From a virus: 13,757 bases of DNA. Numbering within the stretch: position 1 is the first letter of the stretch; the number at the start of each line of letters is the position of its first letter. The notes beneath the pieces are model-generated. The model saw only the letters and a list, made by a program, of their open reading frames with translations. It made no database searches and had not been told where the DNA came from. Positions 1-13,757 of the stretch are shown in pieces. The position numbers and the translations under genes are program-made. Location: UHGV virus genome UHGV-1765841, one strand, 5' to 3'.

Positions 1-25
1 CCATTTTCTATAACGGCATAGTTCA

Positions 26-1819
26 TCACGCATACTCCCAAATGATTGCAATACCAGCCATTCCGCTACCTCCGGCACGCTGCTGCGTCGCTCCACCGTA
101 AACACAGGCACCACCGCCTCCACCACCATGGCCATTGGCATTAATACCTTCGCCTACAATGGCTTGTGACCCGGCCCCCGCACCAAGGATTGAATCGCCG
201 CCAGGCCCACCAATCGCCAGACTGCCAGAAAACCGAACGCCTGGTGAGCTATAACCACTTCCAGACCCGATAATATTGGCACCTGTAAATCCCGGCTCAG
301 TATATGCTCCATACGGACCCACAACCCCAGGAGTAGTACCTTCAGCAAGAACATTCCCACCAAGACCACCTTTGGCAATTATGGTATTACCGAAAGAGGT
401 TGTTCCCCCGGGAGCACCAACCGACGCACTAACACCAATACCGCCATAACCGATAGTCACTGTCGTTACGGCTGGATTATCCACGCGAGCTTTAACATAC
501 TCCCCGGACATTCCCCCGCCACCACAAGCCGCATTATTGGGATAACCGACCTGACAACCACCACCGGCACCACCACCACCAACGATTTCAACAATAATAA
601 ATTTTGTGCCTTGCGTCGGAACGTATGTACCTGAACTTTTAAACACCTGACACTTTATCAGTCTTCCGGAGCCATCGCCCAAACCAAGGTAATCAAGAAC
701 CCCCTGTGTGCTTGTCTTGCCAATAATGGCGCGTCCAACACTTGTCAGTGCGGTTAGCGCAGCACGATCTGCCCCTGTAAAATAAGGGAGTTTATCTGCT
801 GATGTAGCAAGTCCTGCCAGCGCCGTCAGGGTGGCATCCTTCGGTTGCTTACCCGCAAGCGCGTTAGTCATGGTTGTAGCAAAATTCGGGTCGTTACCCA
901 GCGCCGCCGCCAGCTCGTTCAGCGTGTTCAGTGCTTCAGGTGACGAGTCTACAAGTGCGGTAATCGCGGCCATAACATAAGCCGTGCTTGCGATCTGAGT
1001 ATTATTAGTACCCTTTGGCGCTGTTGGCGTTGTTGGCGTTCCGGTCAGTGCCGGGCTGTTTAATGGCGCTTTTTTATTCACTTCATCCATTACCGTCTTA
1101 ACAGCTTTTGGCGTTGCTGCCAGCGTTTCAGACGTGCTGTTTGTGGCGCTACTGAGTCGAACAAGGCCTTTTCGTGCCGTAGTCGCATCCTGAGCGGTAT
1201 ATTTTCCGTTAGCCAGGTCATATGCAGCCTTAACCGCTTTCGGTGTTGCGGCCAGTGTTTCAGATGTGCTGTTGGTTGCACTGCTTAACTGAGTAAAACC
1301 TTTTGCGGTCAGCGAGGCGTCCGGGTGACGTCGTGACTTTTCGTGCTCAGAAATTTTGTCATCCACATATTTACGTGTTGCCAGTACCACAGCCGGGTCG
1401 ATTTTCAGCGTGATGGCTTCGGTGTTCGTGACAACCAGAATCATGCGGATAGTCTGGGTGCGGCCACTGCCTTCCTGTAACTGCGGTTTGTACGTTTCCG
1501 GACAGTTCGCTACCGCAATGAGTACGCCTTCATCATCATAAAGCCCAATCTCACGTATCCAGAATCCGCCCTCGTTCTCAGGGATGATTTGCTCCGCAAT
1601 AATCTGGCTCTGGTTGTTCGGATCAACGCTCAGAAGATTCAGCGGCGCGATGCGTTTCTGGTTAATCAGCTTTGTCTGTGCCGGGTCTGGTGTCGGTAAG
1701 ACACCATTCGCATCACCAACGGCCATTTGCGTCAGATTCAGCTTACTGCCGAGCATCGTCGCGTTAGCCAGCCGTGCTGCGCCCTGATTAGTCAGAATGG
1801 CGTAGTATTTCACTGTCAT
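26..1819 (-). CDS. H: Tail fibre protein, P2 gpH-like; conserved N-terminal tail-collar/shaft region (about residues 1-380) fused to a divergent glycine-rich C-terminal region
   Basis: 597-aa ORF with ATG at 1819 overlapping the gpI stop (ATGA). N-terminal part matches P2 gpH as I recall it, including the duplicated LSSATNSTSETLAATPKAVK motif. C-terminal ~215 aa is Gly-rich (GGGGAGGG, HGGGGGG runs) and unlike P2 gpH. Stop TGA at 26-28. Confidence 0.9.
   Translation of the reverse strand: MTVKYYAILTNQGAARLANATMLGSKLNLTQMAVGDANGVLPTPDPAQTKLINQKRIAPLNLLSVDPNNQSQIIAEQIIPENEGGFWIREIGLYDDEGVLIAVANCPETYKPQLQEGSGRTQTIRMILVVTNTEAITLKIDPAVVLATRKYVDDKISEHEKSRRHPDASLTAKGFTQLSSATNSTSETLAATPKAVKAAYDLANGKYTAQDATTARKGLVRLSSATNSTSETLAATPKAVKTVMDEVNKKAPLNSPALTGTPTTPTAPKGTNNTQIASTAYVMAAITALVDSSPEALNTLNELAAALGNDPNFATTMTNALAGKQPKDATLTALAGLATSADKLPYFTGADRAALTALTSVGRAIIGKTSTQGVLDYLGLGDGSGRLIKCQVFKSSGTYVPTQGTKFIIVEIVGGGGAGGGCQVGYPNNAACGGGGMSGEYVKARVDNPAVTTVTIGYGGIGVSASVGAPGGTTSFGNTIIAKGGLGGNVLAEGTTPGVVGPYGAYTEPGFTGANIIGSGSGYSSPGVRFSGSLAIGGPGGDSILGAGAGSQAIVGEGINANGHGGGGGGACVYGGATQQRAGGSGMAGIAIIWEYA
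1097..1288 (-). repeat. Imperfect direct repeat inside H encoding the duplicated 20-aa motif LSSATNSTSETLAATPKAVK
   Basis: Two about 60-nt copies (about 1097-1156 and 1229-1288), period 132 nt, roughly 85 percent identical at nucleotide level; both encode the identical 20-aa peptide (H residues 178-197 and 222-241). Confidence 0.8.
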
Positions 1820-2427
1820 GCGTTTACTCTCAGGTTATCAATTAAATGAATGGCCGAGGCCGGGAAATAATCCCCTCCGACAATAATGGCCTCCGGGGTG
1901 TAGGGATAAACCGTCAGGGCGTCACCGTGATAGCATCCCGCACCGGCAAAAATGTTGCCGGTTGTACTTAAACTGATAGCCAGTCCCGTAAGATGGCGGC
2001 TCGCCGGTTTTGCATCAGCAACGAGGCGCTCCAGCTCCTGATACATTTCTTCGGTAATACCCTGCTCAAGCACGCCAACAACGATACGGAACGTCCCCGG
2101 CTCCTCGTTGAGCTGCCACCACTCCCTCACCTCAATCAGATAGCCGAGCGGCTCCACCACACGCCGGATTGCACCTATAGTGCCTTTATGACAGTGAATG
2201 AAATACGCATCGCGGATAACAACGCGTTTTGTCGCTTCCGGCCACTTATCATCCCAGCGGTCAACCGAAAATGACCACGCCAGCCACGGCAGCAGATTTG
2301 CCGGGCAGGTGTCCGGGTTCCACAGCTCACGAATACTGACCGGCGTTTTTTCAATTTCCGCACAGGCTTTTGCGGCGGCAACTTCAAGCGGTGATGAGCC
2401 GGTCGGCAGCAGTCGCGAATCACTCAT
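1816..2427 (-). CDS. I: Baseplate assembly protein gpI (P2 I-like), with a C-terminal region longer than and different from P2 gpI
   Basis: 203-aa ORF, ATG at 2427 with GGAGG Shine-Dalgarno about 7 nt upstream. N-terminus MSDSRLLPTGSSPLEVAAAKACAEIEKTPVSIRELWNPDT matches P2 gpI. Overlaps the J stop by 8 nt. Position between J and H as in P2. Confidence 0.9.
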   Translation of the reverse strand: MSDSRLLPTGSSPLEVAAAKACAEIEKTPVSIRELWNPDTCPANLLPWLAWSFSVDRWDDKWPEATKRVVIRDAYFIHCHKGTIGAIRRVVEPLGYLIEVREWWQLNEEPGTFRIVVGVLEQGITEEMYQELERLVADAKPASRHLTGLAISLSTTGNIFAGAGCYHGDALTVYPYTPEAIIVGGDYFPASAIHLIDNLRVNA

Positions 2428-3328
2428 CCGAGCCTCCGGTCACAACGCTGTATTCGGTACAGAAAGACGCCTGCGTATTGTTGAGCACGATGTCGGCCAG
2501 TGGTGCAGCCAGTTCGACACGCTGCACGCCTTCCACATGCAAAGCGGCATAAATGGCAGACAGACGGATGTCGCGCCCCAGCCGGTGCTGTGCCGTGATG
2601 TACGCTTCCAGTTTTTTCACGGCAGCAGCGCGGATGGGTTCGCTTTCGGGACCAGGGTAAAGGTAAAGCGTGGCGTTTATCTGGTATTCAACGATGGCGG
2701 CAGACTGCACGGTCACGCGGTCGGCCACCGGCCTGACGTCCTCGCCATTAAGGGCGTTACGCACCGCCGCCAGCAGGTCTTCGGATGCCACACCGTTATT
2801 TTCGCGAGACAGCACGGAGATGGTGACGCAGGCCGGAGAAGGGCTGGTGACAGAGATATCTGCGACACGCCCGTCGGCACTGCGACCATGATACTGATAG
2901 GCACCCACCGACCCGGCGACGCTTAAACCTTCAAACGCCTGCTGAATACGCAGACGATAATCGGTGTCAGATTCCATCACTGCCGGTGTCGGCGGGATGG
3001 TCGAATCATCTGCCGGGGTGATAGTCAGGCGCGTGGTGTTGTAATTGGCACCAATCACATCAAGGTCATTACCGGCGGCACAGGCCAGCATCACCGCCCG
3101 TGCGGCCTCATTCACACGCTGACGCCAGATAAGCTCACGATAAGCATTTTCCTCCAGCAGTTTGACGAGAGGCTCAGATTCCAGCGTCAGGGTACGGGCG
3201 ACCGCCTCCTGCTGGTCTTCCGGGTAAAGGGAAATCAGTGTCGCCTTGCGTTCAGCGAGAATGGTTTCAAAGTCCAGCTCCTCGACCACATCCGGTGCGG
3301 GTAGCTGGTTCAGGTCGATAATCGGCAT
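2420..3328 (-). CDS. J: Baseplate assembly protein gpJ (baseplate wedge, gp6-like)
   Basis: 302-aa ORF, same length as P2 gpJ, ATG at 3328; recognised by sequence similarity to P2 J; gene order W-J-I. Confidence 0.93.
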   Translation of the reverse strand: MPIIDLNQLPAPDVVEELDFETILAERKATLISLYPEDQQEAVARTLTLESEPLVKLLEENAYRELIWRQRVNEAARAVMLACAAGNDLDVIGANYNTTRLTITPADDSTIPPTPAVMESDTDYRLRIQQAFEGLSVAGSVGAYQYHGRSADGRVADISVTSPSPACVTISVLSRENNGVASEDLLAAVRNALNGEDVRPVADRVTVQSAAIVEYQINATLYLYPGPESEPIRAAAVKKLEAYITAQHRLGRDIRLSAIYAALHVEGVQRVELAAPLADIVLNNTQASFCTEYSVVTGGSDE

Positions 3329-3332
3329 GGTT

Positions 3333-3680
3333 TCAACTCACAGGGATGGTTAATGAAAGTGGCTGGCCGGTGTCGTTGTGCTGGCCGGTTAACGTGACCG
3401 TCATTCGCCCGTCAAAACTGCGCTCAGTGGTGACGGATGACAGGGTGACGCGGGGTTCCCATTTCAGCACCGCCATGTAACAGGCGACCTTAATCTGCAA
3501 CTCAAGCGCCGGGGTCTGCGGCTGGTCAATCATTGACGCCAGCAATGAGCCGTAATCACGACGCATCACCCGAGAGCCGACTGGTGTGCGCAGGATATCG
3601 CCGATACTCTGGCTGATATGCTCAAGGTCAGTGACAGTCAGGCCATCACTGCGATTCATTCCGAGATAACGCGCTGTCAT
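3333..3680 (-). CDS. W: Baseplate assembly protein gpW (T4 gp25-like baseplate wedge subunit)
   Basis: 115-aa ORF identical in length and near-identical in sequence to P2 gpW; ATG at 3680 overlaps the V stop (ATGA); GGGAG Shine-Dalgarno upstream. Confidence 0.93.
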   Translation of the reverse strand: MTARYLGMNRSDGLTVTDLEHISQSIGDILRTPVGSRVMRRDYGSLLASMIDQPQTPALELQIKVACYMAVLKWEPRVTLSSVTTERSFDGRMTVTLTGQHNDTGQPLSLTIPVS

Positions 3681-4312
3681 AGAGGACTCCCGGTTGTGCC
3701 GCCGCTGTCGCCGGGGTGTTTATGGGTATGCAGTACCTTCCCGTTTGATGAGAGTTCACCGCCGGTATGTTTAATGTTGCCGCGCATCGTCCCGCCCTTC
3801 TGCACTTCCAGCGTGCCGGTAATCAGCCTGTTGGTGCAGACCACCTCTGGTGTGTCCAGGGTGACGCGGGTTGATGCTTTCACCATGACCACCGGCACCG
3901 TGGCGGTAACAGAATCAGAAGCCGTCACGCTGGCCGTTTTAATTCCGCTTACCGTGAGTGCACTGGTTTCGGGTTCATACTCAATCACCGCCCCGTCAGG
4001 GAAACGGATATGCAGGGCATCCGCCGACGCAGACGGCGCGGGGTTATCACCGGAATAAATCCCCGGCAGAACGAACGCCGTGTCGAGTTCACCGCCCACG
4101 GCCAGAATCAGAACCTGTTCCCCCACGGAAGGCGCCCACCATGTGCGCGAACGTCCGGCGCGATGGGTCAGCCACTGAAGCCAGTCGGTGCACATGCCGC
4201 CGGTCTGCACACGGCAGCGACCGGCGTTAAGGTCGGTTTCGACGACAAGGCCGGTGCGGATCATGTTGCGCAGTGCGCGCGCGAGTTCCTGAATATTTGC
4301 GAGAGTGTTCAT
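3677..4312 (-). CDS. V: Baseplate hub/spike protein gpV
   Basis: 211-aa ORF, same length and near-identical N-terminus (MNTLANIQELARALRNMIRTG) to P2 gpV; first gene of the V-W-J-I-H cluster, preceded by a 66-bp intergenic gap. Confidence 0.93.
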   Translation of the reverse strand: MNTLANIQELARALRNMIRTGLVVETDLNAGRCRVQTGGMCTDWLQWLTHRAGRSRTWWAPSVGEQVLILAVGGELDTAFVLPGIYSGDNPAPSASADALHIRFPDGAVIEYEPETSALTVSGIKTASVTASDSVTATVPVVMVKASTRVTLDTPEVVCTNRLITGTLEVQKGGTMRGNIKHTGGELSSNGKVLHTHKHPGDSGGTTGSPL

Positions 4313-4378
4313 AACGGGAAGGATGCCGCCGGGTCATACCGGCGGCAATGTGACGATGAGGTGTCGGGAATGGCACAA
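4313..4378 (-). promoter_or_regulatory. Putative late promoter region upstream of V (P_V-equivalent)
   Basis: 66-bp gap between S and V, where P2 has a late promoter for the V-W-J-I-H-G operon. On the - strand the gap contains TGTGCCATTCCCGACACC (plus-strand 4360-4377), a partial TGT...ACA dyad. Promoter elements not confidently assigned. Confidence 0.35.
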
Positions 4379-4831
4379 CTAACGATCGAGGTGAGTCAGG
4401 ATAATCTCTTCAATCATCTGCACATCCTCACCGGTAAAGCCGAGCAGAGGGCGCGCCGGATAATCAATTTTCTTACCGTCTTTCCGGGTTTCTTCCGACA
4501 GACCAAACTGATGCACACTGGCGATTTTCGGTGACTTCCCGCCGTAAAATTCCATTGATGCCTGTTCCGGGCTGGCGCGGATATGCAAAAAACGACTGGT
4601 GATAAGTTTCGCAAACATTTTTCGCTTAACACGACCAGTCTTTTTTCTGGCGCTCTGCTGCTGGCGTGGCGCGTAGGGTGTGCCGTCCGGGGCTTTCTGA
4701 GCCATCACCCGACGCTGCTGACTCTGCCGCAGACGTTTCGCCAGTTCGGCACTCAGTCGCCGACGCCCTGACGGTGACAGCGACTCAATCAGTCCGGTCA
4801 GCCGGTCTTCAAAACGCTTAAACTCATTCAT
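4379..4831 (-). CDS. S: Tail completion protein gpS (virion morphogenesis)
   Basis: 150-aa ORF matching P2 gpS in length and sequence; ATG at 4831; overlaps the R stop by 8 nt. Confidence 0.9.
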   Translation of the reverse strand: MNEFKRFEDRLTGLIESLSPSGRRRLSAELAKRLRQSQQRRVMAQKAPDGTPYAPRQQQSARKKTGRVKRKMFAKLITSRFLHIRASPEQASMEFYGGKSPKIASVHQFGLSEETRKDGKKIDYPARPLLGFTGEDVQMIEEIILTHLDR

Positions 4832-5291
4832 CCCACTTACTCACCAGTTCGCCATTGATATAAAGCTCCATCGGGCGGGTGACCGGCTCCGGCGGCGTGG
4901 GTTCCGGGATATTCTTCACATGCAGCGCGCCGTCCACCTCACTGACCAGCGTGCGCTCGGTCAGCATCAGGCTGATGCTGATATCAAAGCTGCTGTCATT
5001 GTTGATGTCTGCATAAAACGTGAAGCCCTTTTTCTGGCCTTCGTCGGTGGTCATGATGTCGGGCTGATTTTCCCGCAGCCAAGCCAGCACCGGCACAATG
5101 AGCAGGTCAAAATCACCGGTAAAGTCGGTCACAATCACATTGAGCGTGTAACGCTTTTCGAACGACAACGACGTCGCCAGCGTGGAGGCAATACTCCCGT
5201 TATCCACGAATATCCGCAGCATCTCGGGACTGGTTTTCAGCACCGTGACGGCATCAGTCAGCGCCCTGCGCAGGCTGTCGGGTTTGAGCAT
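4824..5291 (-). CDS. R: Tail completion protein gpR
   Basis: 155-aa ORF matching P2 gpR; ATG at 5291 with AGGACGA Shine-Dalgarno-like sequence upstream; its start lies within the 3' end of lysC. Confidence 0.9.
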   Translation of the reverse strand: MLKPDSLRRALTDAVTVLKTSPEMLRIFVDNGSIASTLATSLSFEKRYTLNVIVTDFTGDFDLLIVPVLAWLRENQPDIMTTDEGQKKGFTFYADINNDSSFDISISLMLTERTLVSEVDGALHVKNIPEPTPPEPVTRPMELYINGELVSKWDE

Positions 5292-5544
5292 TGTTTTCGT
5301 CCTGACAGTGTTTAATCATTTTTACCTGGCTGGCACAGCGTGCCAGCGCGTTCTCAAGCTGCCGGATACCGGCACTTAAATCGCCGTTCGTCTGCGGGTC
5401 ACTGCCCGGCATCGGGCAAAGGCTCACTTTCGGGCAGGCGTTGGCGACAATCACTGGCGTCAGTGCAGGCCGGACGCTGGTGCAACCGGCGCACAGCATC
5501 AGGCAGGTCAGCACCGTACCAGCGGCGAAAATCTTCGTTTTCAT
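5254..5544 (-). CDS. lysC: Outer-membrane lipoprotein spanin subunit (o-spanin, LysC/Rz1-like)
   Basis: Six-frame ORF 5254-5661 trimmed to the internal ATG at 5544 (GAGG 9 nt upstream), giving 96 aa (MKTKIFAAGTVLTCLMLCAGCTSV...) with signal peptide, lipobox-like LCAGC, and Pro-rich periplasmic part. Starts inside lysB in another frame and extends past its stop, the overlapped spanin architecture of P2. Confidence 0.75.
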   Translation of the reverse strand: MKTKIFAAGTVLTCLMLCAGCTSVRPALTPVIVANACPKVSLCPMPGSDPQTNGDLSAGIRQLENALARCASQVKMIKHCQDENNAQTRQPAQGAD

Positions 5545-5824
5545 TGAGTAACCTCGTGATGGTTTTCTCGCGCTGTGCTTCACGCTTCGCGGCGTTCTCC
5601 AGCTCCTGACGCAGTGCCACCTGCGCCAGCTCGTTTTTGTCTGCCCTGGTAAGGGCAACATGAAGCTGGTTTTTCAGCATGGTGATGGTCGTCTGCTGCC
5701 CGCTGGCGACGCTGTTCGCCCTGTCCAGTGAGGTGCGCAGGCTGGCGTTTTCATGCTTCGCCAGAAACAGACCGACCACCGCCAGTGATAACAACACAAC
5801 CAGCACAATCATCAGCTTTGACAT
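5399..5824 (-). CDS. lysB: Inner-membrane spanin subunit (i-spanin, LysB/Rz-like)
   Basis: 141-aa ORF with N-terminal transmembrane segment (MSKLMIVLVVLLSLAVVGLFLA) followed by a charged coiled-coil-like periplasmic domain; position after lysA as in P2. Confidence 0.85.
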   Translation of the reverse strand: MSKLMIVLVVLLSLAVVGLFLAKHENASLRTSLDRANSVASGQQTTITMLKNQLHVALTRADKNELAQVALRQELENAAKREAQREKTITRLLNENEDFRRWYGADLPDAVRRLHQRPACTDASDCRQRLPESEPLPDAGQ

Positions 5825-6237
5825 GGTTCCCGCCCCTCAAAACGCTGACGACAGGCCGTGCGTATCAACCGGAAGAACACCGACGCCACGAGGTAAATCA
5901 GCGCGGTAAAAATCCACCCGGCAGCGACCAGCGAGATAAACGTCGCCACCATCACCACCAGAGCCGCCGCCCGTCTGCGCCACGGCACCGGCTGCAAAAA
6001 CAGCGACGCGACAATCTTCACGGCCAGCGATTCCGGTGGCAGCTCCCGCCCGTAGCGTTCCAGCACATACTCAGTGGCATACACGCCGACACCACCGGCA
6101 ACCACACAGATAACCGTCGCCAGAATCGCCCAGGCGGCGACAAAATTGACGGCCACGCTCTGCGGGTAAATCAGGGACAGTGCCAGCATCAGCGCCAGCG
6201 ACACATTCAGCATCAGTGAAAGGGATAATTTCTTCAT
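5812..6237 (-). CDS. lysA: Lysis regulatory membrane protein LysA (multi-pass membrane protein, lysis timing)
   Basis: 141-aa strongly hydrophobic ORF with several predicted TM segments; same size and position as P2 lysA; ATG at 6237 with GGAG Shine-Dalgarno. Confidence 0.85.
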   Translation of the reverse strand: MKKLSLSLMLNVSLALMLALSLIYPQSVAVNFVAAWAILATVICVVAGGVGVYATEYVLERYGRELPPESLAVKIVASLFLQPVPWRRRAAALVVMVATFISLVAAGWIFTALIYLVASVFFRLIRTACRQRFEGREPCQS

Positions 6238-6251
6238 GGTGTTTACTCCGT

Positions 6252-6749
6252 TTAAGCTGGTACACCGCCGGCGGTACGCCAGACGGTGACCAGTTTTTCC
6301 AGTGAATGCTCACGCTGACCGTAACCGGCACCCGGCAGGGACGCCCAGATATTGCGACAGCGTGAAATGGCGCGCTCAATGCTTCCCGCCCGGATGTCAT
6401 CCAGTGCACCGCGTTCGCGGATCAACTGAATGGCGAGCCTGTCCTGTGACAACGGACTGAAATCCGGCAGGGCAAGCTGTTTGCGGTAGTGCGGCCAGAA
6501 CAGGTAAAGCTGCTGATAGCGACCGGAGGCCGTGGATTTTTCACCGCGACGGTTAAACACCTTCGCCGGTCGGCCATGTGCGAACGGGTGGTCACTGTAG
6601 TCGGTGAAGATTTCCGGCTTTCCGTCCAGTCCGGTGACTATCACGTCATAGCCCCGGTTTTTCGTCAGCGGATGATTCGCCGTCCCTTCGGACACGGCCA
6701 GCATGTCGAGAAAGGCAGCGATATTCTGATGCGTGTTAATTACCGGCAT
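6252..6749 (-). CDS. K: Endolysin gpK, lambda R-like lytic transglycosylase
   Basis: 165-aa ORF; N-terminal FLDMLAVSEGT motif with the catalytic Glu context of lambda R-type transglycosylases, and C-terminal IWASLPGAGYGQ motif; ATG at 6749 overlaps the Y stop (TAATG). Confidence 0.93.
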   Translation of the reverse strand: MPVINTHQNIAAFLDMLAVSEGTANHPLTKNRGYDVIVTGLDGKPEIFTDYSDHPFAHGRPAKVFNRRGEKSTASGRYQQLYLFWPHYRKQLALPDFSPLSQDRLAIQLIRERGALDDIRAGSIERAISRCRNIWASLPGAGYGQREHSLEKLVTVWRTAGGVPA

Positions 6750-7030
6750 TACGGTTTCCCCCTGCCCTTAAAGCGGCGCTGAATGGCAATCTCAATTACC
6801 TGATAACCGGCGATACCCAGCATGGAGCCGATGCCGCACACCGCAGGCAGTGACAGGTCAGGAAACTGCACCAGAACAACACCGGCAACCATCGAGACAA
6901 AACCACCGAGCAACATGCGCCCGATAAAAAGACGCGGGGTGATGGGTTCACCACCGGCAAGCACCTTGCCGACAACAATCAGCACCCCAATCATGAAAAG
7001 CGACAGGACGCTTTTTTCTTCTGCTGTCAT
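6749..7030 (-). CDS. Y: Holin gpY
   Basis: 93-aa ORF with hydrophobic TM segments and a charged C-terminus (RRFKGRGKP); immediately upstream of the endolysin; GGGAG Shine-Dalgarno upstream of ATG 7030. Confidence 0.9.
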   Translation of the reverse strand: MTAEEKSVLSLFMIGVLIVVGKVLAGGEPITPRLFIGRMLLGGFVSMVAGVVLVQFPDLSLPAVCGIGSMLGIAGYQVIEIAIQRRFKGRGKP

Positions 7031-7033
7031 GCG

Positions 7034-7237
7034 TTACTCCCACAGATTGACAGTTTCAGCCACGGGCGCGGTCTGAACGTCGGGCAGTTCGACGGCGGTG
7101 CCGTGTGGCAGCACCGCCCCCAGTTCAGCCAGTCCCGGATTTGCGGCGAGCACAGTCTCAACCACGCCTTCAGTGCGCCCGTAATACCGGACACAAATGG
7201 CGTCGAGCGTGTCGCCCTGTAGCGCAAAGGTCTTCAT
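7034..7237 (-). CDS. X: Tail protein gpX, LysM-like domain protein
   Basis: Six-frame ORF 7034-7306 trimmed to ATG at 7237, which overlaps the L stop (TGATG), giving 67 aa (MKTFALQGDTLDAICVRYYG...), the size of P2 gpX; LysM-like motif. Confidence 0.8.
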   Translation of the reverse strand: MKTFALQGDTLDAICVRYYGRTEGVVETVLAANPGLAELGAVLPHGTAVELPDVQTAPVAETVNLWE

Positions 7238-7746
7238 CAGATTTGACTCACGATGCAGCGCGGCTTGTCCTGGATGCGCGCCACTGCCCAGCGCATATCC
7301 CGCCACAGCTCATCAATGGTGCTGTCAATGCTGTCGGCCTTCTTGTCGCCTTTCGCACTGGCATCCACACCGCGATAACGTTCATAAAGTGACGCGGTCG
7401 CCATCGCACACACGGCGCGCTCGTAGTAAAAAACTTTGATGCTTTCACCGTCGATATCGTCTGCCGGGACGTCAGCCAGACGCGTAAAACCGGCGGCAAT
7501 TTTCTGTTCGCGGTACTCGTACAGCTCCGCATTCGTCTCCGCCATGCCTGACTTGATGGCCTCACGCAGACGGGCGGGGGCGACGGTCTGCTCAAGGCGC
7601 ATACGTTCCCGGACGCGCTTCGGGTCGATATCGGGAAAAAAGAACGTGTTTTTAATCACCGGCTCGTCGCCTGCCGGTTGCGGGATGACCACCGTACCCT
7701 CACCGGACACGGGAGCCTCCTTTCGCGGAATAATCAGCGTCATCAT
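7237..7746 (-). CDS. L: Head completion/stabilisation protein gpL
   Basis: Six-frame ORF begins at a GTG at 7806; trimmed to the tandem ATGs at 7746/7743 (GAGG 7 nt upstream), giving 169 aa (MMTLIIPRKEAPVSGEG...), matching P2 gpL. Confidence 0.88.
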   Translation of the reverse strand: MMTLIIPRKEAPVSGEGTVVIPQPAGDEPVIKNTFFFPDIDPKRVRERMRLEQTVAPARLREAIKSGMAETNAELYEYREQKIAAGFTRLADVPADDIDGESIKVFYYERAVCAMATASLYERYRGVDASAKGDKKADSIDSTIDELWRDMRWAVARIQDKPRCIVSQI

Positions 7747-7845
7747 GACTACCTCAGAAAAGTCGGGCGGTGGACGCCGGTACAGTGTCAGGTGATTCAC
7801 CCACACTGACCGGCGTGCCGCCCTGGCGCGGGGCGCATTCGGTTG

Positions 7846-8589
7846 TTAACTGGCTTTCTTTTTCGGGCGTCCACGTTTTGCCGGTGTCACGCTCCGGGTC
7901 TTACGCGGGGCGCGGGTGGCCGCTTTGGGCTGCGGCTCCGGCTTCGGTTTCAGCTCCCGCTCCAGTCGTTCAATCTCTTTTTTGACACCTGCCTGACAGT
8001 CGAGCTGTGTCGCACGTTGCAGGTGAGCCAGCGCACCGGCGGCATCACCACCATCACGCAGAAGCAGACCGGTGATTTTGTGCAGCTTTGCGCGCACTTC
8101 ATCAGGCATGTCAGCCGTGGCGGTCAGTTCAAGGGTCTCCGTCAGCAGGCGGGTATCCACAGACTCACCGGCAGCGTGGGCGCGCATGGCCGCTAGCGCC
8201 ACCTCCTCGGTGAACATGTATGGCGGGGTGCGGCGGTGTTTACCCGGCATGGTCAGACCGTACTTCAGGGCATAACGGGCAATCTCCAGCGCACCGCTAA
8301 TATCGCCGGTATCCAGACGCCACAGCATGACCGTCATCAGAATGTCATCCTGTGCACCTTTGCCCTGCTCCAGCACGCCGTTCACCCACGGCAACCAGAA
8401 CGGCAGCAGTTCGCGTTTTTTCGCGGCCTTCAGCTCTTTTGAATAAATCGCTTTCAGTGTGCGCTGGTCTGCGGCCAGCTTGACCAGCATCTGCTCATAG
8501 ACAGTTGCATGTCGCAGCGGGGCGGCGTCCCGCTGCGCGGTCATCGCTGCCGAGACCCGCATCATGTGGCGCTGTGCGGGACTCGTCAT
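7846..8589 (-). CDS. M: Terminase small (endonuclease) subunit gpM
   Basis: 247-aa ORF matching P2 gpM in size; GGGAG Shine-Dalgarno upstream of ATG 8589; strongly basic C-terminal tail (TRAPRKTRSVTPAKRGRPKKKAS). Confidence 0.92.
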   Translation of the reverse strand: MTSPAQRHMMRVSAAMTAQRDAAPLRHATVYEQMLVKLAADQRTLKAIYSKELKAAKKRELLPFWLPWVNGVLEQGKGAQDDILMTVMLWRLDTGDISGALEIARYALKYGLTMPGKHRRTPPYMFTEEVALAAMRAHAAGESVDTRLLTETLELTATADMPDEVRAKLHKITGLLLRDGGDAAGALAHLQRATQLDCQAGVKKEIERLERELKPKPEPQPKAATRAPRKTRSVTPAKRGRPKKKAS

Positions 8590-8592
8590 CGG

Positions 8593-9666
8593 TTACGCTC
8601 CCGGCTCTGCGGTCACTTTAGTCGGTGTGGAGAAGTCACCGACCTTAATTTTTTCCACCAGACAACCGGCGGCGTAGTCTTCCACCACGTAATCAATGTT
8701 CATTGACTCGTAGTTCTCCACGCGGTCGAGTTTCGGGTTTTCCACAATCACGCGGCGATGGCTGTCATCCATGTAGTAGATGGACAGGTTTTCCAGCTTT
8801 GTGATGAGCATCGCATCCGCCGGGAAGTACGGGACGCGTACCGCCGGCAGGTTACCGATGCGTTTCTGGCTGATGATGACGTCAGCGGCCAGCATTTCGC
8901 TGTTGTCCTGCTCCTTATTGACGATGGGGAAATACTTGTCCGCCAGTAGCTGACGCCCCACAATCACCACAAGGTCAGGGTCTTCCTGATACCACGGCTC
9001 AATCAGGTTATTGGTCGCATCCATCACCAGTGCATCAAGGCTGGCATAATCACCGCCCTTGCCCACGCGGATAACCTCAGAGGTGGTGCGGCCTTCCTCG
9101 TCAGTGACCTTGCTCATCACGCGCGCCGGGGCTTCATTGCGGTATTTCTGCAGCCAGCCGACCGCCACATCCTGCAGCATCGGATTGCTGCTGCGGTCAG
9201 AGGTTTCGGCACGCTTCACGCCGTTAAAACCGGCCATGATGAAATCAAGGGACTGGCGTTTGATAATGGCGTTACGGATACGGAGCTGGAAATCCTGATA
9301 ACGCGCCCACAGGTCAAGCGTTTTGTAGCGGATATAAAAATCGAAGTTAATCTGGTCGCATTCGTACTTGTTTGACGCCAGCTTCGAGAAGTCCTTCGGC
9401 TGACGCTCGGTGCCACCGGCGGTGTCGGTGGTGCTGGCGATGGAGCCGGTGACACCGATACCAATTTTTTCCCCTTTCATTTCGCTGACCGGCACAATAT
9501 TGATGCGGGTCAGAAAATCAGAGGACTCCTGCATGGTGTTCATCAGGGTCTGGGTGACCGACGGTTCAACGGTGAATTTTTTCGACACATCACCGGCGTC
9601 GATGCCGTTCAGTTCGGCAACACGGGACAGGTAGGCATTAAATTTAAAGCGGGTTTCCTGGCGCAT
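8593..9666 (-). CDS. N: Major capsid protein gpN
   Basis: 357-aa ORF, same length and near-identical sequence to the P2 gpN precursor; AGGAAA Shine-Dalgarno 7 nt upstream of ATG 9666. Confidence 0.95.
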   Translation of the reverse strand: MRQETRFKFNAYLSRVAELNGIDAGDVSKKFTVEPSVTQTLMNTMQESSDFLTRINIVPVSEMKGEKIGIGVTGSIASTTDTAGGTERQPKDFSKLASNKYECDQINFDFYIRYKTLDLWARYQDFQLRIRNAIIKRQSLDFIMAGFNGVKRAETSDRSSNPMLQDVAVGWLQKYRNEAPARVMSKVTDEEGRTTSEVIRVGKGGDYASLDALVMDATNNLIEPWYQEDPDLVVIVGRQLLADKYFPIVNKEQDNSEMLAADVIISQKRIGNLPAVRVPYFPADAMLITKLENLSIYYMDDSHRRVIVENPKLDRVENYESMNIDYVVEDYAAGCLVEKIKVGDFSTPTKVTAEPGA

Positions 9667-9724
9667 AGTTTTTCCTGAAATTAAGGGTTAATCGTGAAGG
9701 TTTTCCCGGACTGACTGACGCCGG

Positions 9725-10579
9725 TCAGCAGTTCGTCATCAGGGCGTCACCGCCACCACCGGTGGCCTTGCTGCGGCGCTGCTGGGTCAGACTTTCGGTG
9801 TGGTCGAGACTGTTTTTCAGGCGGGTGAATGCCTGACTGGTTTCATCCGCCCTGTCAGTCACATCCTGCTTAAGTGCGGAAAAGGCGTTTTCCATCTCAG
9901 CGAGGCGCTGCTCAGTGGCGCTCAGTTTTTCCTGCACATGTTCAGCGACAGCGGTCACCGCTTCATGCACGTCATTCAGACGGGCGTCATCGCTGGCCTG
10001 TTTGCGGCCAAAAATGGATTTCACCTTTTCGGTCAGGGCGGTGAACACGGTTTCAGGCAGGTCTTCAAATTCCAGCTCAACAGGCGTTGCCACTGAAATC
10101 AGGTTTTCAGGGCTTAATTTGAAGCGGTTCAGAGGGTTGTGTTTTGCCGTGCGGCAGAATTCCAGGTATTCCGTGCCGAGGCTTGCCGGGTCATCGGTGA
10201 CGGCCAGACCCACCAGATAACATTTGCCGGTGTTGGCAAAGTTCGGCTGAATTTCCATTGAGGTGTAGACCTTCTGCGCGGCCTTGTTCATCGCGATAAG
10301 GTCATCGGTCGGGGTGATTTTCGCAAACAGCGCCCATTTGCCTTTCAGCGCCGAATCATCGTCAATCTTTTCGGCCTTCAGTTCGACCACATCGCCATAA
10401 CGCTTAAAAATACCGTCAGGCAGGATGCCGCGCAGATGTTCCAGGTTAATGCGGCAACCATAGACTCGCGGGTCAAAGGTTTCGGCCATTTCCTGAATAT
10501 CCTGCGCACTGATGACACGCCCGTCACAGGTGTCACCCTCAACGCCGATACGAAAGAATTTTGAGACTTTTTTTGCCAT
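9725..10579 (-). CDS. O: Capsid scaffolding protein gpO (scaffold/protease)
   Basis: Six-frame ORF 9725-10645 trimmed to ATG at 10579 (AGGA upstream), giving 284 aa (MAKKVSKFFRIGVEGDTCDGR...), the size of P2 gpO. Confidence 0.9.
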   Translation of the reverse strand: MAKKVSKFFRIGVEGDTCDGRVISAQDIQEMAETFDPRVYGCRINLEHLRGILPDGIFKRYGDVVELKAEKIDDDSALKGKWALFAKITPTDDLIAMNKAAQKVYTSMEIQPNFANTGKCYLVGLAVTDDPASLGTEYLEFCRTAKHNPLNRFKLSPENLISVATPVELEFEDLPETVFTALTEKVKSIFGRKQASDDARLNDVHEAVTAVAEHVQEKLSATEQRLAEMENAFSALKQDVTDRADETSQAFTRLKNSLDHTESLTQQRRSKATGGGGDALMTNC

Positions 10580-10752
10580 TGTCAGGAGTCCTGAATAGTG
10601 ATTAGAGGAGTCACATGTCGGCATCAGTTTCCCGACGATGCGCATCCTCCGCCATCAGTCCCGGATGGCTTATCACTGACACAACAGCACCTTAGCGAAT
10701 CGCGGGGCGCGACTCAGTAGCCTTGCCGTGTATTCATCACGGCGAGGTATTC
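10580..10752. promoter_or_regulatory. Divergent late promoter region (P_O leftward and P_P rightward in P2 terms), expected to be Ogr/Delta-type activator dependent
   Basis: 173-bp intergenic region between divergently transcribed O and P. Contains a perfect 13-nt palindrome tcaggagtcctga (10582-10594) and the inverted repeat GTCGG-N10-CCGAC (10617-10636). Exact -10/-35 elements and start sites not resolved by eye. Confidence 0.5.
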
Positions 10753-12525
10753 ATGACCATCACCACAGACACCACTCTTTTACACGACCCGCGTCGTCAG
10801 GCGGCGCTGCTGTACTGGCAGGGATTTTCCGTGCCGCAGATTGCCGCCATGTTGCAGATGAAACGCCCGACGGTGCAGAGCTGGAAACAGCGCGACGGCT
10901 GGGACAGCGTTGCCCCCATCAGCCGTGTCGAAATGAGCCTGGAAGCGCGGCTGACCCAGCTCATCATCAAACCGCAGAAAACTGGCGGTGACTTCAAGGA
11001 AATTGACCTGCTGGGACGCCAGATTGAACGACTGGCACGGGTAAATCGCTACAGCCAGACCGGCAACGAGGCAGACCTTAATCCGAACGTCGCTAACCGC
11101 AACAAAGGCGGGCGGCGCAAACCGAAAAAGAATTTTTTCAGTGACGAAGCCATCGAAAAGCTGGAGCAGATTTTCTTTGAGCAGTCTTTCGACTATCAGT
11201 TGCACTGGTATCGCGCCGGGCTTGAGCACCGCATCCGCGATATCCTGAAATCCCGCCAGATTGGCGCGACATTTTATTTTTCCCGCGAGGCGCTGCTGCG
11301 CGCCCTGAAAACCGGTCATAACCAGATTTTTCTGTCGGCCAGTAAAACGCAGGCGTATGTGTTCCGCGAATACATCATCGCCTTTGCCCGTCTGGTTGAC
11401 GTTGACCTGACCGGTGACCCGATTGTCCTGGGCAATAACGGCGCAAAACTGATTTTTCTCGGCACCAACTCCAACACCGCGCAGAGCCATAACGGCGACC
11501 TGTACGTCGACGAGATTTTCTGGATCCCGAATTTTCAGGTACTGCGTAAGGTGGCATCAGGTATGGCCTCACAGAGTCACCTGCGTTCGACCTATTTCTC
11601 CACCCCGTCCACGCTGGCGCACGACGCCTACCCGTTCTGGTCGGGTGAACTGTATAACCGGGGACGCGCCAGCGCCGCCGAACGCGTGGAAATCGACGTC
11701 AGTCATAACGCCCTTGCCGGTGGGCTTCTCTGTGCGGACGGCCAGTGGCGACAGATTGTCACCATTGAGGACGCCCTGAAAGGTGGCTGCACGCTGTTCG
11801 ACATTGAGCAGCTCAAACGCGAAAACAGCGCCGACGATTTTAAAAACCTGTTCATGTGTGAATTTGTTGACGACAAGGCGTCGGTGTTCCCGTTCGAGGA
11901 GCTGCAACGCTGCATGGTCGACACGCTGGAAGAATGGGAAGACTATGCACCCTTTGCCGCCAATCCGTTCGGCTCCCGCCCGGTATGGATTGGTTACGAC
12001 CCGTCACACCGTGGCGACAGTGCCGGATGCGTGGTGCTGGCACCGCCGGTGGTGGCCGGTGGCAAATTCAGAATACTTGAGCGTCACCAGTGGAAAGGCA
12101 TGGACTTTGCCACTCAGGCTGAATCCATCCGCAAACTCACCGAAAAATACAACGTCGAATACATCGGTATTGATGCCACTGGCCTCGGTGTCGGCGTGTT
12201 CCAGCTCGTGCGCTCGTTCTATCCCGCCGCGCGCGACATCCGCTACACGCCGGAAATGAAAACCGCAATGGTGCTCAAGGCAAAAGACGTCATCCGCCGT
12301 GGCTGTCTGGAATATGACGTCAGCGCCACCGACATCACCAGCTCGTTTATGGCTATCCGCAAGACCATGACCAGCAGCGGACGCAGCGCCACCTATGAGG
12401 CCAGCCGCAGCGAGGAAGCCAGCCACGCCGACCTCGCCTGGGCAACCATGCACGCCCTGTTAAATGAGCCACTCACCGCCGGTATCAGCACTCCGCTGAC
12501 ATCCACCATTCTGGAGTTTTACTGA
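10753..12525 (+). CDS. P: Terminase large (ATPase) subunit gpP
   Basis: Six-frame ORF starts at TTG 10723 without a Shine-Dalgarno; trimmed to ATG 10753 (GAGG at 10744-10747), giving 590 aa (MTITTDTTLLHDP...), the size of P2 gpP. Stop TGA overlaps the Q start (TGATG). Confidence 0.93.
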   Translation: MTITTDTTLLHDPRRQAALLYWQGFSVPQIAAMLQMKRPTVQSWKQRDGWDSVAPISRVEMSLEARLTQLIIKPQKTGGDFKEIDLLGRQIERLARVNRYSQTGNEADLNPNVANRNKGGRRKPKKNFFSDEAIEKLEQIFFEQSFDYQLHWYRAGLEHRIRDILKSRQIGATFYFSREALLRALKTGHNQIFLSASKTQAYVFREYIIAFARLVDVDLTGDPIVLGNNGAKLIFLGTNSNTAQSHNGDLYVDEIFWIPNFQVLRKVASGMASQSHLRSTYFSTPSTLAHDAYPFWSGELYNRGRASAAERVEIDVSHNALAGGLLCADGQWRQIVTIEDALKGGCTLFDIEQLKRENSADDFKNLFMCEFVDDKASVFPFEELQRCMVDTLEEWEDYAPFAANPFGSRPVWIGYDPSHRGDSAGCVVLAPPVVAGGKFRILERHQWKGMDFATQAESIRKLTEKYNVEYIGIDATGLGVGVFQLVRSFYPAARDIRYTPEMKTAMVLKAKDVIRRGCLEYDVSATDITSSFMAIRKTMTSSGRSATYEASRSEEASHADLAWATMHALLNEPLTAGISTPLTSTILEFY

Positions 12526-13559
12526 TGAGCAAGAAAAAAGGGAAAACACCGCGACCTGCGGCAAAAACAATCACCGCCAGCGCCCCGAAAATGGAGGCAT
12601 TCACCTTTGGCGAGCCGGTGCCGGTACTCGACCGCCGTGACATTCTGGATTACGTCGAGTGCATCAGTAACGGCAGATGGTATGAGCCGCCGGTCAGCTT
12701 TACCGGTCTGGCAAAAAGCCTGCGTGCTGCCGTGCATCACAGCTCACCGATTTACGTCAAACGTAATATTCTGGCTTCAACGTTTATCCCGCACCCGTGG
12801 CTTTCCCAGCAGGATTTCAGCCGCTTTGTGCTGGATTTTCTGGTATTCGGTAATGCGTTTCTGGAAAAGCGTTACAGCACCACCGGTAAGGTCATCAGAC
12901 TGGAAACCTCACCGGCCAAATATACCCGTCGTGGTGTGGAGGAGGATGTTTACTGGTGGGTGCCGTCCTTCAACGAGCCGACAGCCTTCGCGCCCGGCTC
13001 CGTGTTTCACCTGCTGGAGCCGGATATTAATCAGGAGCTGTACGGCCTGCCGGAATATCTCAGCGCCCTTAACTCTGCCTGGCTGAATGAGTCGGCCACG
13101 CTGTTCCGCCGCAAGTATTACGAAAACGGCGCACATGCCGGATACATCATGTACGTCACCGATGCCGTGCAGGATCGCAACGATATCGAAATGCTCCGCG
13201 AAAACATGGTTAAGTCGAAAGGCCGCAACAACTTTAAAAATCTGTTTCTCTATGCCCCACAGGGGAAAGCCGACGGCATTAAAATTATCCCCCTCAGTGA
13301 AGTGGCGACGAAGGACGATTTTTTTAATATCAAAAAAGCCAGCGCCGCTGACCTGCTGGACGCGCACCGCATCCCCTTTCAGTTGATGGGGGGCAAGCCG
13401 GAGAACGTCGGGTCGCTGGGTGATATTGAGAAAGTGGCAAAGGTCTTTGTCCGCAATGAGCTTATCCCGTTACAGGACAGGATCCGCGAGATAAACGGCT
13501 GGCTCGGTCAGGAGGTCATCCGCTTTAAAAACTACTCACTGGACACTGACAACGGCTGA
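12525..13559 (+). CDS. Q: Portal (capsid vertex) protein gpQ
   Basis: 344-aa ORF, same length as P2 gpQ; ATG 12525 overlaps the P stop; followed by an intrinsic terminator and the cos site, as at the P2 left end. Confidence 0.93.
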   Translation: MSKKKGKTPRPAAKTITASAPKMEAFTFGEPVPVLDRRDILDYVECISNGRWYEPPVSFTGLAKSLRAAVHHSSPIYVKRNILASTFIPHPWLSQQDFSRFVLDFLVFGNAFLEKRYSTTGKVIRLETSPAKYTRRGVEEDVYWWVPSFNEPTAFAPGSVFHLLEPDINQELYGLPEYLSALNSAWLNESATLFRRKYYENGAHAGYIMYVTDAVQDRNDIEMLRENMVKSKGRNNFKNLFLYAPQGKADGIKIIPLSEVATKDDFFNIKKASAADLLDAHRIPFQLMGGKPENVGSLGDIEKVAKVFVRNELIPLQDRIREINGWLGQEVIRFKNYSLDTDNG

Positions 13560-13564
13560 ACATC

Positions 13565-13586
13565 GCCGCCTGCGGGCGGCTTTTTT
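13565..13586 (+). terminator. Rho-independent terminator downstream of Q
   Basis: GC stem gccgcc (13565-13570), loop tgcg, ggcggc (13575-13580), followed directly by TTTTTT (13581-13586); 6 nt after the Q stop codon. Confidence 0.65.
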
Positions 13587-13728
13587 ACAACCCGCCATCA
13601 CGCCCTCACACGCTCACCACCGCACAAAACAGCCCGCATACACACCAACGCCCCGGCGAACAATCTAAACGCCATCACGACGCGCTCAGACGCTGAAAAA
13701 ATAAAATCAGCACCACCGCCAGCGCGCA

Positions 13729-13747
13729 GTGCTTTCCCCGCCTCGCC
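13729..13747. other. cos site: 19-nt cohesive-end sequence of P2-type phages (joined form)
   Basis: gtgctttccccgcctcgcc at 13729-13747 is the exact reverse complement of GGCGAGGCGGGGAAAGCAC, the P2 cohesive end as I recall it. Position about 170 bp beyond the Q stop and orientation match the P2 left end. Sequence continues on both sides, so the ends are joined here. Confidence 0.7.
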
Positions 13748-13757
13748 CGCCCGCTTC

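Follow-up and report, generated by a model that had tools for sequence, protein, structure and literature searches.

A P2-like prophage tail fibre with a glycine-rich tip of the Pam3 gp24 type, a widespread domain also carried by Mu-like-tail prophages

The stretch of DNA studied here, 13,757 nucleotides (nt) of the virus genome UHGV-1765841 and called the window below, is the late-gene region of a P2-like prophage, as seen from its open reading frames (ORFs) and from matching contexts in related contigs. On the minus strand the genes follow the order O-N-M-L-X-Y-K-lysA-lysB/C-R-S-V-W-J-I-H, and P and Q lie on the plus strand. The subject of this study is the last gene of this row, H, which encodes the tail fibre. 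Gene H is flanked by gene I and by a Tfa (tail fibre assembly) gene within a P2-type late operon, which is indicated by the ORF order, an annotated sister prophage and identical contigs, and its ORF runs without interruption. The genes W and J, in the same operon, are 99% identical to their P2 counterparts. No Rfam family reached its gathering score anywhere in the window (1-13757). The features of the H locus are the following (aa, amino acids; TNF, tumour necrosis factor; pLDDT, predicted local distance difference test):

26..1819, minus strand: gene H, tail fibre of a P2-like Escherichia coli prophage, 597 aa plus stop (ORF list, translation, Pfam PF12571 + PF03406 + PF21722)
1370..1819, minus strand: N-terminal tail-collar fibre domain for baseplate attachment, H aa 1-150, a variant allele (Pfam Phage_tail_fib, PF12571, E 1.5e-62 over the full profile length)
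1061..1315, minus strand: shaft with two Phage_fiber_2 repeats, H aa 169-253 (Pfam PF03406, two stretches, E 1.4e-40)
695..1060, minus strand: distal P2-like part of the shaft, H aa 254-375 (BLASTP against P2 gpH)
669..701, minus strand: crossover zone, coding for (L)DYLGLGDGS (ends of the homology to other P2-like H genes and to the fibre gene of a Mu-like-tail prophage)
29..664, minus strand: TNF-like plus glycine-rich tip, presumed receptor-binding module, H aa 386-597 (Pfam Gly_rich_2, Pam3 gp24 type)
230..361, minus strand: least conserved stretch of the tip, H aa 487-530, candidate hypervariable receptor-contact loops (72-sequence alignment, pLDDT per block, analogy to Pam3)
1..26, minus strand: start of the Tfa chaperone gene (MNYAVIEN…), its first 26 nt, the remainder lying beyond the window (sequence)

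Comparing H with gpH of P2 (NC_001895) reveals a sharp end of the similarity. BLASTP aligned H aa 26-386 with 74% identity and free of gaps, ending at YLGL, and tblastn with the full-length gpH covered residues 1-387, corresponding to window nt 1819-662. H follows gpH to residue 379 (…DYLGL), the sequence DYLGLG being encoded by nt 694-677 (aa 376-381). This is the place where a first-pass annotation of the window, made from the sequence alone, had seen the likeness stop. The same annotation described the first ~380 residues as tracking P2 closely, which is correct for aa 151-379 (87% identity as a whole, with 96% in aa 151-250, the repeats, and 81% in aa 251-379) but not for aa 1-150, where the identity is 51%. 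From aa 380 on, the identity drops to background (22% in a forced global alignment). Nothing significant was found by BLASTP against gpH past H aa 386, and the distal region of the P2 protein (aa ~381-669) is absent from H. In the PHROGs collection, fibre families match the first ~385 aa of H, and a different set, namely phrog_863 (E 3e-46), phrog_6202 and phrog_454, matches the last 224 aa.

Such a picture could also arise if the glycine-rich tail were the product of a frameshift or an assembly chimera, with the true P2-like distal domain left in another frame, a possibility which the first-pass annotation had itself named as fatal to its reading. A tblastn search with gpH aa 381-669 and gpG against all six frames of the window gave a best E of 1.0 over 9 aa, and the ORF is unbroken. 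Four contigs, taken from assemblies of NCBI, Logan and ENA, encode a 597-aa protein identical to H and keep the gene order. Moreover, the complete E. coli genome NZ_AP027886 (strain 2018-05-5CC), which harbours a sister prophage (L001), contains the region with 98.8% identity, and over nt 1-700 with 99.9% DNA identity. The segment is also a recognised Pfam domain with a confidently folded model (see below). Because the P2 distal domain is found in no frame and the same protein occurs in four assemblies and, lengthened by one shaft repeat, in a complete genome, we consider a frameshift or chimera to be excluded for all practical purposes.

The distal part of H is of unusual composition. Within aa 380-597, 63 of the 218 residues are glycine (29%, compared to 6% in aa 1-379), arranged among others in the runs GGGG (414-417), GGG (419-421), GGGG (433-436) and GGGGGG (565-570). 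GGGGAGGG is found near the start of the tip and HGGGGGGA near its end, four cysteines occupy positions 390, 422, 432 and 572, and the protein terminates with IAIIWEYA. The runs, the cysteines and the terminus are as the first-pass annotation had described them. A glycine content of this size, runs of up to six residues, the suppression of matches by the low-complexity filter of BLAST and the presence of some "collagen-like" proteins of giant viruses in the weaker part of the fold matches would also suit a disordered or collagen-like low-complexity spacer. However, the Pfam profile Gly_rich_2 (PF21722) matches H aa 397-593 with 33.7 bits against a gathering score of 24.3, over profile positions 4-223 of 226, and AlphaFold2 with a 72-sequence alignment models the tip with a pLDDT of 90.9 and a predicted template modelling score of 0.86, without any segment below 50. 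Since the gathering score is passed and the fold is predicted with such confidence, the glycine richness is not chance low complexity, and we reject the spacer as a most improbable explanation.

The fold could be assigned by profile and by structure comparison. Searching the PDB with the single tip sequence (phmmer) returned noise only and did not recover 7YFW, the fibre of the cyanophage Pam3. With a profile built from nine members of the family the Pam3 fibre came up at E 0.005, and a 72-member profile, built from tip relatives which are 30-45% identical, matched it (7YFW, 7YPX) at E 5.3e-10 over profile positions 144-330, up to the terminal beta-strand; no other PDB entry matched at E≤1. 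Using the AlphaFold2 model of the tip as a query, Foldseek found 7ypx_A with E 1.3e-7, and the predicted structure displays a TNF-like sandwich with stacked glycine-rich loops. BFVD, a library of predicted viral structures, contains 236 matching proteins (E≤0.001; highest TM-score 0.87), and tail fibre or glycine-rich domain-containing protein is the name of many of them. Pam3 gp24 is a trimer in which a TNF-like sandwich passes into twelve glycine-rich motifs forming a four-layer lattice; its central loops L1 and L6 contain GGGGxGG and the distal ends are variable (PMC9608196). In the 72-sequence alignment the glycine columns of the H tip are conserved and aa 487-530 and 548-563 are least conserved, the lowest model confidence (pLDDT) within the former stretch falling on aa 504-523. 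This placement of motifs and the pattern of conservation fit the description of Pam3 gp24. The earlier remark that glycine-rich fibre tips are poorly characterised structurally is therefore outdated, as the structures 7YFW and 7YPX exist (PMC9608196). A full-text literature search found no paper naming PF21722 or Gly_rich_2.

The closest relatives of the tip reside on a different kind of fibre. A 316-aa protein (P0021) is encoded directly behind baseplate genes of the Mu gp45/46/47/48 type and in front of a 131-aa Caudo_TAP gene, in a Mu-like-tail prophage (L002) located next to ybhB-bioA. Over its last 223 aa it matches H aa 375-597 with 95% identity. On the DNA level the homology to L002 begins at window nt 701 and continues to nt 1 with 93.7% identity, and in the sister prophage L001 it extends 63 nt into the chaperone gene and then stops. 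P2-like H genes with other tips, such as the collar-type tip of L007, are homologous to the window down to nt 666-678. A base-by-base comparison of the window, L007, L002 and P2 located the junction: both homologies overlap in ~25 nt (ACCTTGGTTTGGGnGAnGGCTC), coding for YLGLG(D/E)GS, and because they overlap there we regard this stretch as the crossover zone. The tip of H has been replaced by exchange; the swap is real and an ordinary case of the module shuffling of phage tail fibres. That P2, Mu, P1, lambda-type and T-even phages swap fibre tips along with the matching chaperones belongs to textbook knowledge, and horizontal tip exchange between unrelated phages has been known since the first sequence analyses of P2 H and G. 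The first-pass annotation had regarded the distal module as a mosaic segment unrelated to gpH; the lack of colinearity in BLASTP and the crossover in the shared linker support this view, and the receptor role it proposed is plausible by analogy.

With a probability of roughly 85%, we interpret H as a modular P2-like fibre with a Pam3 gp24-type tip gained by recombination in the linker from a Mu-like-tail fibre cassette. According to this model aa 1-150 are the domain docking on the baseplate, aa 151-375 form a P2-type shaft, and aa 376-385 are a conserved linker (YLGLGDGS). The following residues (aa 386-597) would fold as a TNF-like beta-sandwich from which glycine-rich loops extend, a fold solved for Pam3 gp24. 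Homologous recombination in the linker DNA common to both fibre types would have brought in the tip and the first ~63 nt of the chaperone gene, the putative source being a fibre cassette which circulates in Mu-like-tail prophages of E. coli and Shigella. The fibre is presumably trimeric, as are other phage tail fibres, and the Caudo_TAP chaperone may keep hold of the tip domains during trimerisation, which would begin at the C-terminus of the fibre. Conserved motifs of the GGGGxGG type would build the rigid stacked core of the tip, and the loops of low conservation (roughly aa 487-530 and 548-563) are candidates for contact with the host surface.

Several points weigh against this interpretation. 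The AlphaFold2 model is that of a single chain, so that the trimer and the chaperone contact are outside its scope. The profile match to Pam3 has a large compositional bias term, and the fold match which supports it rests on a predicted model. The direction of the transfer is deduced only from abundance, the tip being frequent among Mu-like-tail fibres of 316 aa and seldom seen on H proteins of the P2 type. In a collection of 50,697 phage records, the isolated phages have no close relative of the tip: neither tblastn with the tip at E≤1e-5 nor blastn in distant mode yielded a match, and at E≤10 there were only weak partial matches, in Pantoea PdC23, Pectobacterium PEAT2, Goslar and Klebsiella JD001-type fibres. 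Finally, the binding of lipopolysaccharide (LPS) considered below is extrapolated from weakly matching homologues: in tblastn the JD001-type fibres gave only a short hit of E = 2, with 48% identity across 29% of the query.

Many relatives of the tip have names which suggest an enzyme. A number of 316-aa relatives (P0011, P0012, P0021 and others) are called "carbohydrate kinase" at NCBI, which would make the tip protein an enzyme rather than an adhesin. However, no kinase or other enzyme family matches in Pfam and no kinase is among the fold matches, the gene always occupies the fibre slot behind the baseplate genes and in front of Tfa, and UniRef and the NCBI Prokaryotic Genome Annotation Pipeline (PGAP) now use the name "glycine-rich domain-containing protein". 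With no backing for a kinase from Pfam or from the fold search, the name seems to be an annotation error passed on between records, probably originating from a spurious match of the GGGG motifs, and we give an enzymatic tip practically no credence. Among the close relatives listed, this corrects the name of many records from E. coli and Shigella. Some of the 316-aa relatives are labelled "StfP" by PGAP.

By analogy to Pam3 gp24 and similar fibres we infer that the tip is a receptor-binding module. Host-range mutations of Klebsiella phages fall in a gp24 homologue's glycine-rich domain, and the purified protein blocks DNA ejection triggered by LPS (PMC12671077; PMC11633184). Because gp24 homologues of Klebsiella phages are linked to host range and LPS in this way, the most likely receptor of the H tip would be LPS or another surface glycan. 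As the tip differs from that of P2 and its receptor is likely to be such a glycan, the receptor specificity is probably unlike that of P2. Glycine-rich scaffolds with hypervariable loops can, however, also recognise proteins, as described for the gp38 adhesins (Dunne et al. 2018, cited in PMC9608196; PMC12892980). The tip might accordingly bind an outer-membrane protein, in the way that gp38 adhesins from phages of the T2 and S16 types bind OmpC, OmpF and FadL; compared to the glycan, for which the Klebsiella data speak, this is the less probable choice but a serious one. Somewhat more doubtful is a receptor not yet known for either phage group, for example some outer-membrane protein, or else one particular type of O-antigen or core, in which case the 29%-Gly scaffold might be a compact binding platform for engineered P2 or P4 particles that is easy to re-target. 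This idea derives from the missing close relatives in isolated phages, the sharing of the tip by P2-like and Mu-like-tail prophages, and the truncated copy in E. coli B and BL21 (see below).

Among the known systems, P2 itself resembles the locus in the gene position (…V-W-J-I-H-tfa-FI…), the Phage_tail_fib N-terminus, the two Phage_fiber_2 repeats and the shaft, but the distal 218 aa of H are unrelated to gpH aa 381-669. Pam3 (7YFW, 7YPX) shares the tip domain type and a Tfa-like chaperone gene, which in our case follows H immediately; its product gp25 clamps the gp24 tip during assembly (PMC9608196). However, gp24 is a minimal fibre of 280 aa with a short helical stalk sitting directly on a simple baseplate, whereas the H tip ends a P2-type stalk of ~385 aa, and the sequence identity between both tips is low. 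The 316-aa fibres of Mu-like-tail prophages (P0021, P0012) share the tip of H from the LGLGDGS linker on, past the stop codon and as far as codon 21 of Tfa, but differ in the N-terminal ~95 aa. The latter resemble the N-terminus of protein S, the fibre protein of Mu (5yvq, E 1.8e-4), and link the fibre to a baseplate of the Mu type. For Klebsiella fibres of the gp24 type (SCNJ1-Y TFP_Y, MMNM_27) a TNF-like plus glycine-rich architecture was assigned by the respective authors, but these are short, baseplate-attached fibres of lytic minimalist myophages with weak and partial sequence likeness. Structural relatives only are the TNF-like plus glycine-rich (TG) supradomain of the receptor tyrosine kinases ALK/LTK, ALK being a eukaryotic cytokine-binding ectodomain, and gp33 and gp29 from the tail tip of mycobacteriophage Bxb1, which are components of a siphophage "wing brush" and spike. 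A T-even gp38 adhesin (S16/T2 type, polyglycine sandwich, 6F45) was considered as well and rejected: a separate gp37-capping protein of ~260 aa with a 6F45-like fold was not found.

The tip domain is widespread. An exhaustive HMMER scan of 1.84 billion representatives gave 3,967 clusters (at 50% identity) with E≤0.001, 679 of them with E≤1e-10. In the best 150 of the 3,967 matches the domain ends at the C-terminus of the protein or a few residues from it, and the N-terminal parts are of very different lengths. With the C-terminal 224 aa as a query, more than 100 clusters have 90-97% identity, mostly E. coli and Shigella proteins of 314-338 aa which are named "glycine-rich domain-containing protein" or, wrongly, "carbohydrate kinase". 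The tip allele is present in 69 of 5,426 complete E. coli genomes, and on the P2-type stalk of the window in one, which matched at least 80% of nt 1-2000. Linker and tip are also found on P2-type fibres of Enterobacter (P0125, P0155; PF12571 + PF21722) and on other stalk types in E. coli (P0002, P0028, P0093). A truncated tip module is carried by E. coli B, BL21 and REL606; it corresponds to window nt 1-544 with 95% identity (e.g. NC_012967.1 794382-794925) and adjoins a tail fibre assembly gene and a gene annotated as "anti-CBASS protein Acb1 family protein".

What was known beforehand is the tip domain, by its Pfam family and a solved homologue, and the architecture of a P2 stalk with Gly_rich_2; specific to this locus are the allele and the precisely mapped junction. 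The swap reveals no new mechanism. Nevertheless, which strains a P2-like phage can adsorb to, and likewise any P4-type satellite using its tail, depends chiefly on the fibre tip, and since a catalogued tip has been grafted there onto a P2 stalk, YLGLGDGS represents a natural, validated fusion point for P2 fibre engineering. A paper on P2 pseudotyping contains nothing specific to the H junction or tip (PMC9594776).

The tip is not the only mosaic segment of the region, as had been claimed, because aa 1-150 of H form a second exchanged module together with the C-terminal part of I (window ~1355-2100, minus strand). At 203 aa the product of gene I is longer than its P2 counterpart (176 aa), from which it diverges beyond aa ~100. 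With pro483, "P2" from O157:H43 T22 and other P2-like prophages the window shares 95-97% DNA identity from nt 1355-1359 to 2000.

Regarding the gene beyond H, the expectation of a fibre chaperone was right, though its start had been misplaced at nt 4-2: the ATG lies at nt 26-24 and overlaps the H stop codon (TGATG). In identical contexts (L001, L004) the full Tfa gene encodes 129 aa and matches Pfam Caudo_TAP with E 4.5e-21. The protein is 27% identical to P2 gpG (175 aa) and 46% to Tfa of the Mu-like-tail prophage, with which its first 21 residues are identical. Between tfa and the sheath gene FI there is a gap of ~420 nt where P2 has fun(Z) (L001 5479-5593; L004 8184-8605; L007 1255-1415), and a frameshifted piece of a recombinase or DNA invertase is annotated there in RefSeq. 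This piece points to an ancestral fibre locus that contained an invertible segment like those of Gin, Cin and Pin.

Two Acyl_transf_3 genes are located just behind fibre and Tfa in L002 (9388-10413, 12181-13326). Their products may modify the O-antigen and so convert the serotype; recognition of LPS by the fibre would agree with that.

The shaft differs between close relatives. The two shaft repeats of the window could not be detected as DNA repeats by Tandem Repeats Finder or by a second repeat search. In the sister prophage L001 the H protein (6026-7951) has 641 aa and contains a third 44-aa Phage_fiber_2 repeat, compared to two copies in the H of the window. Hence the copy number of shaft repeats varies between prophages which are otherwise 99.7-99.9% identical (window compared to strain 2018-05-5CC).

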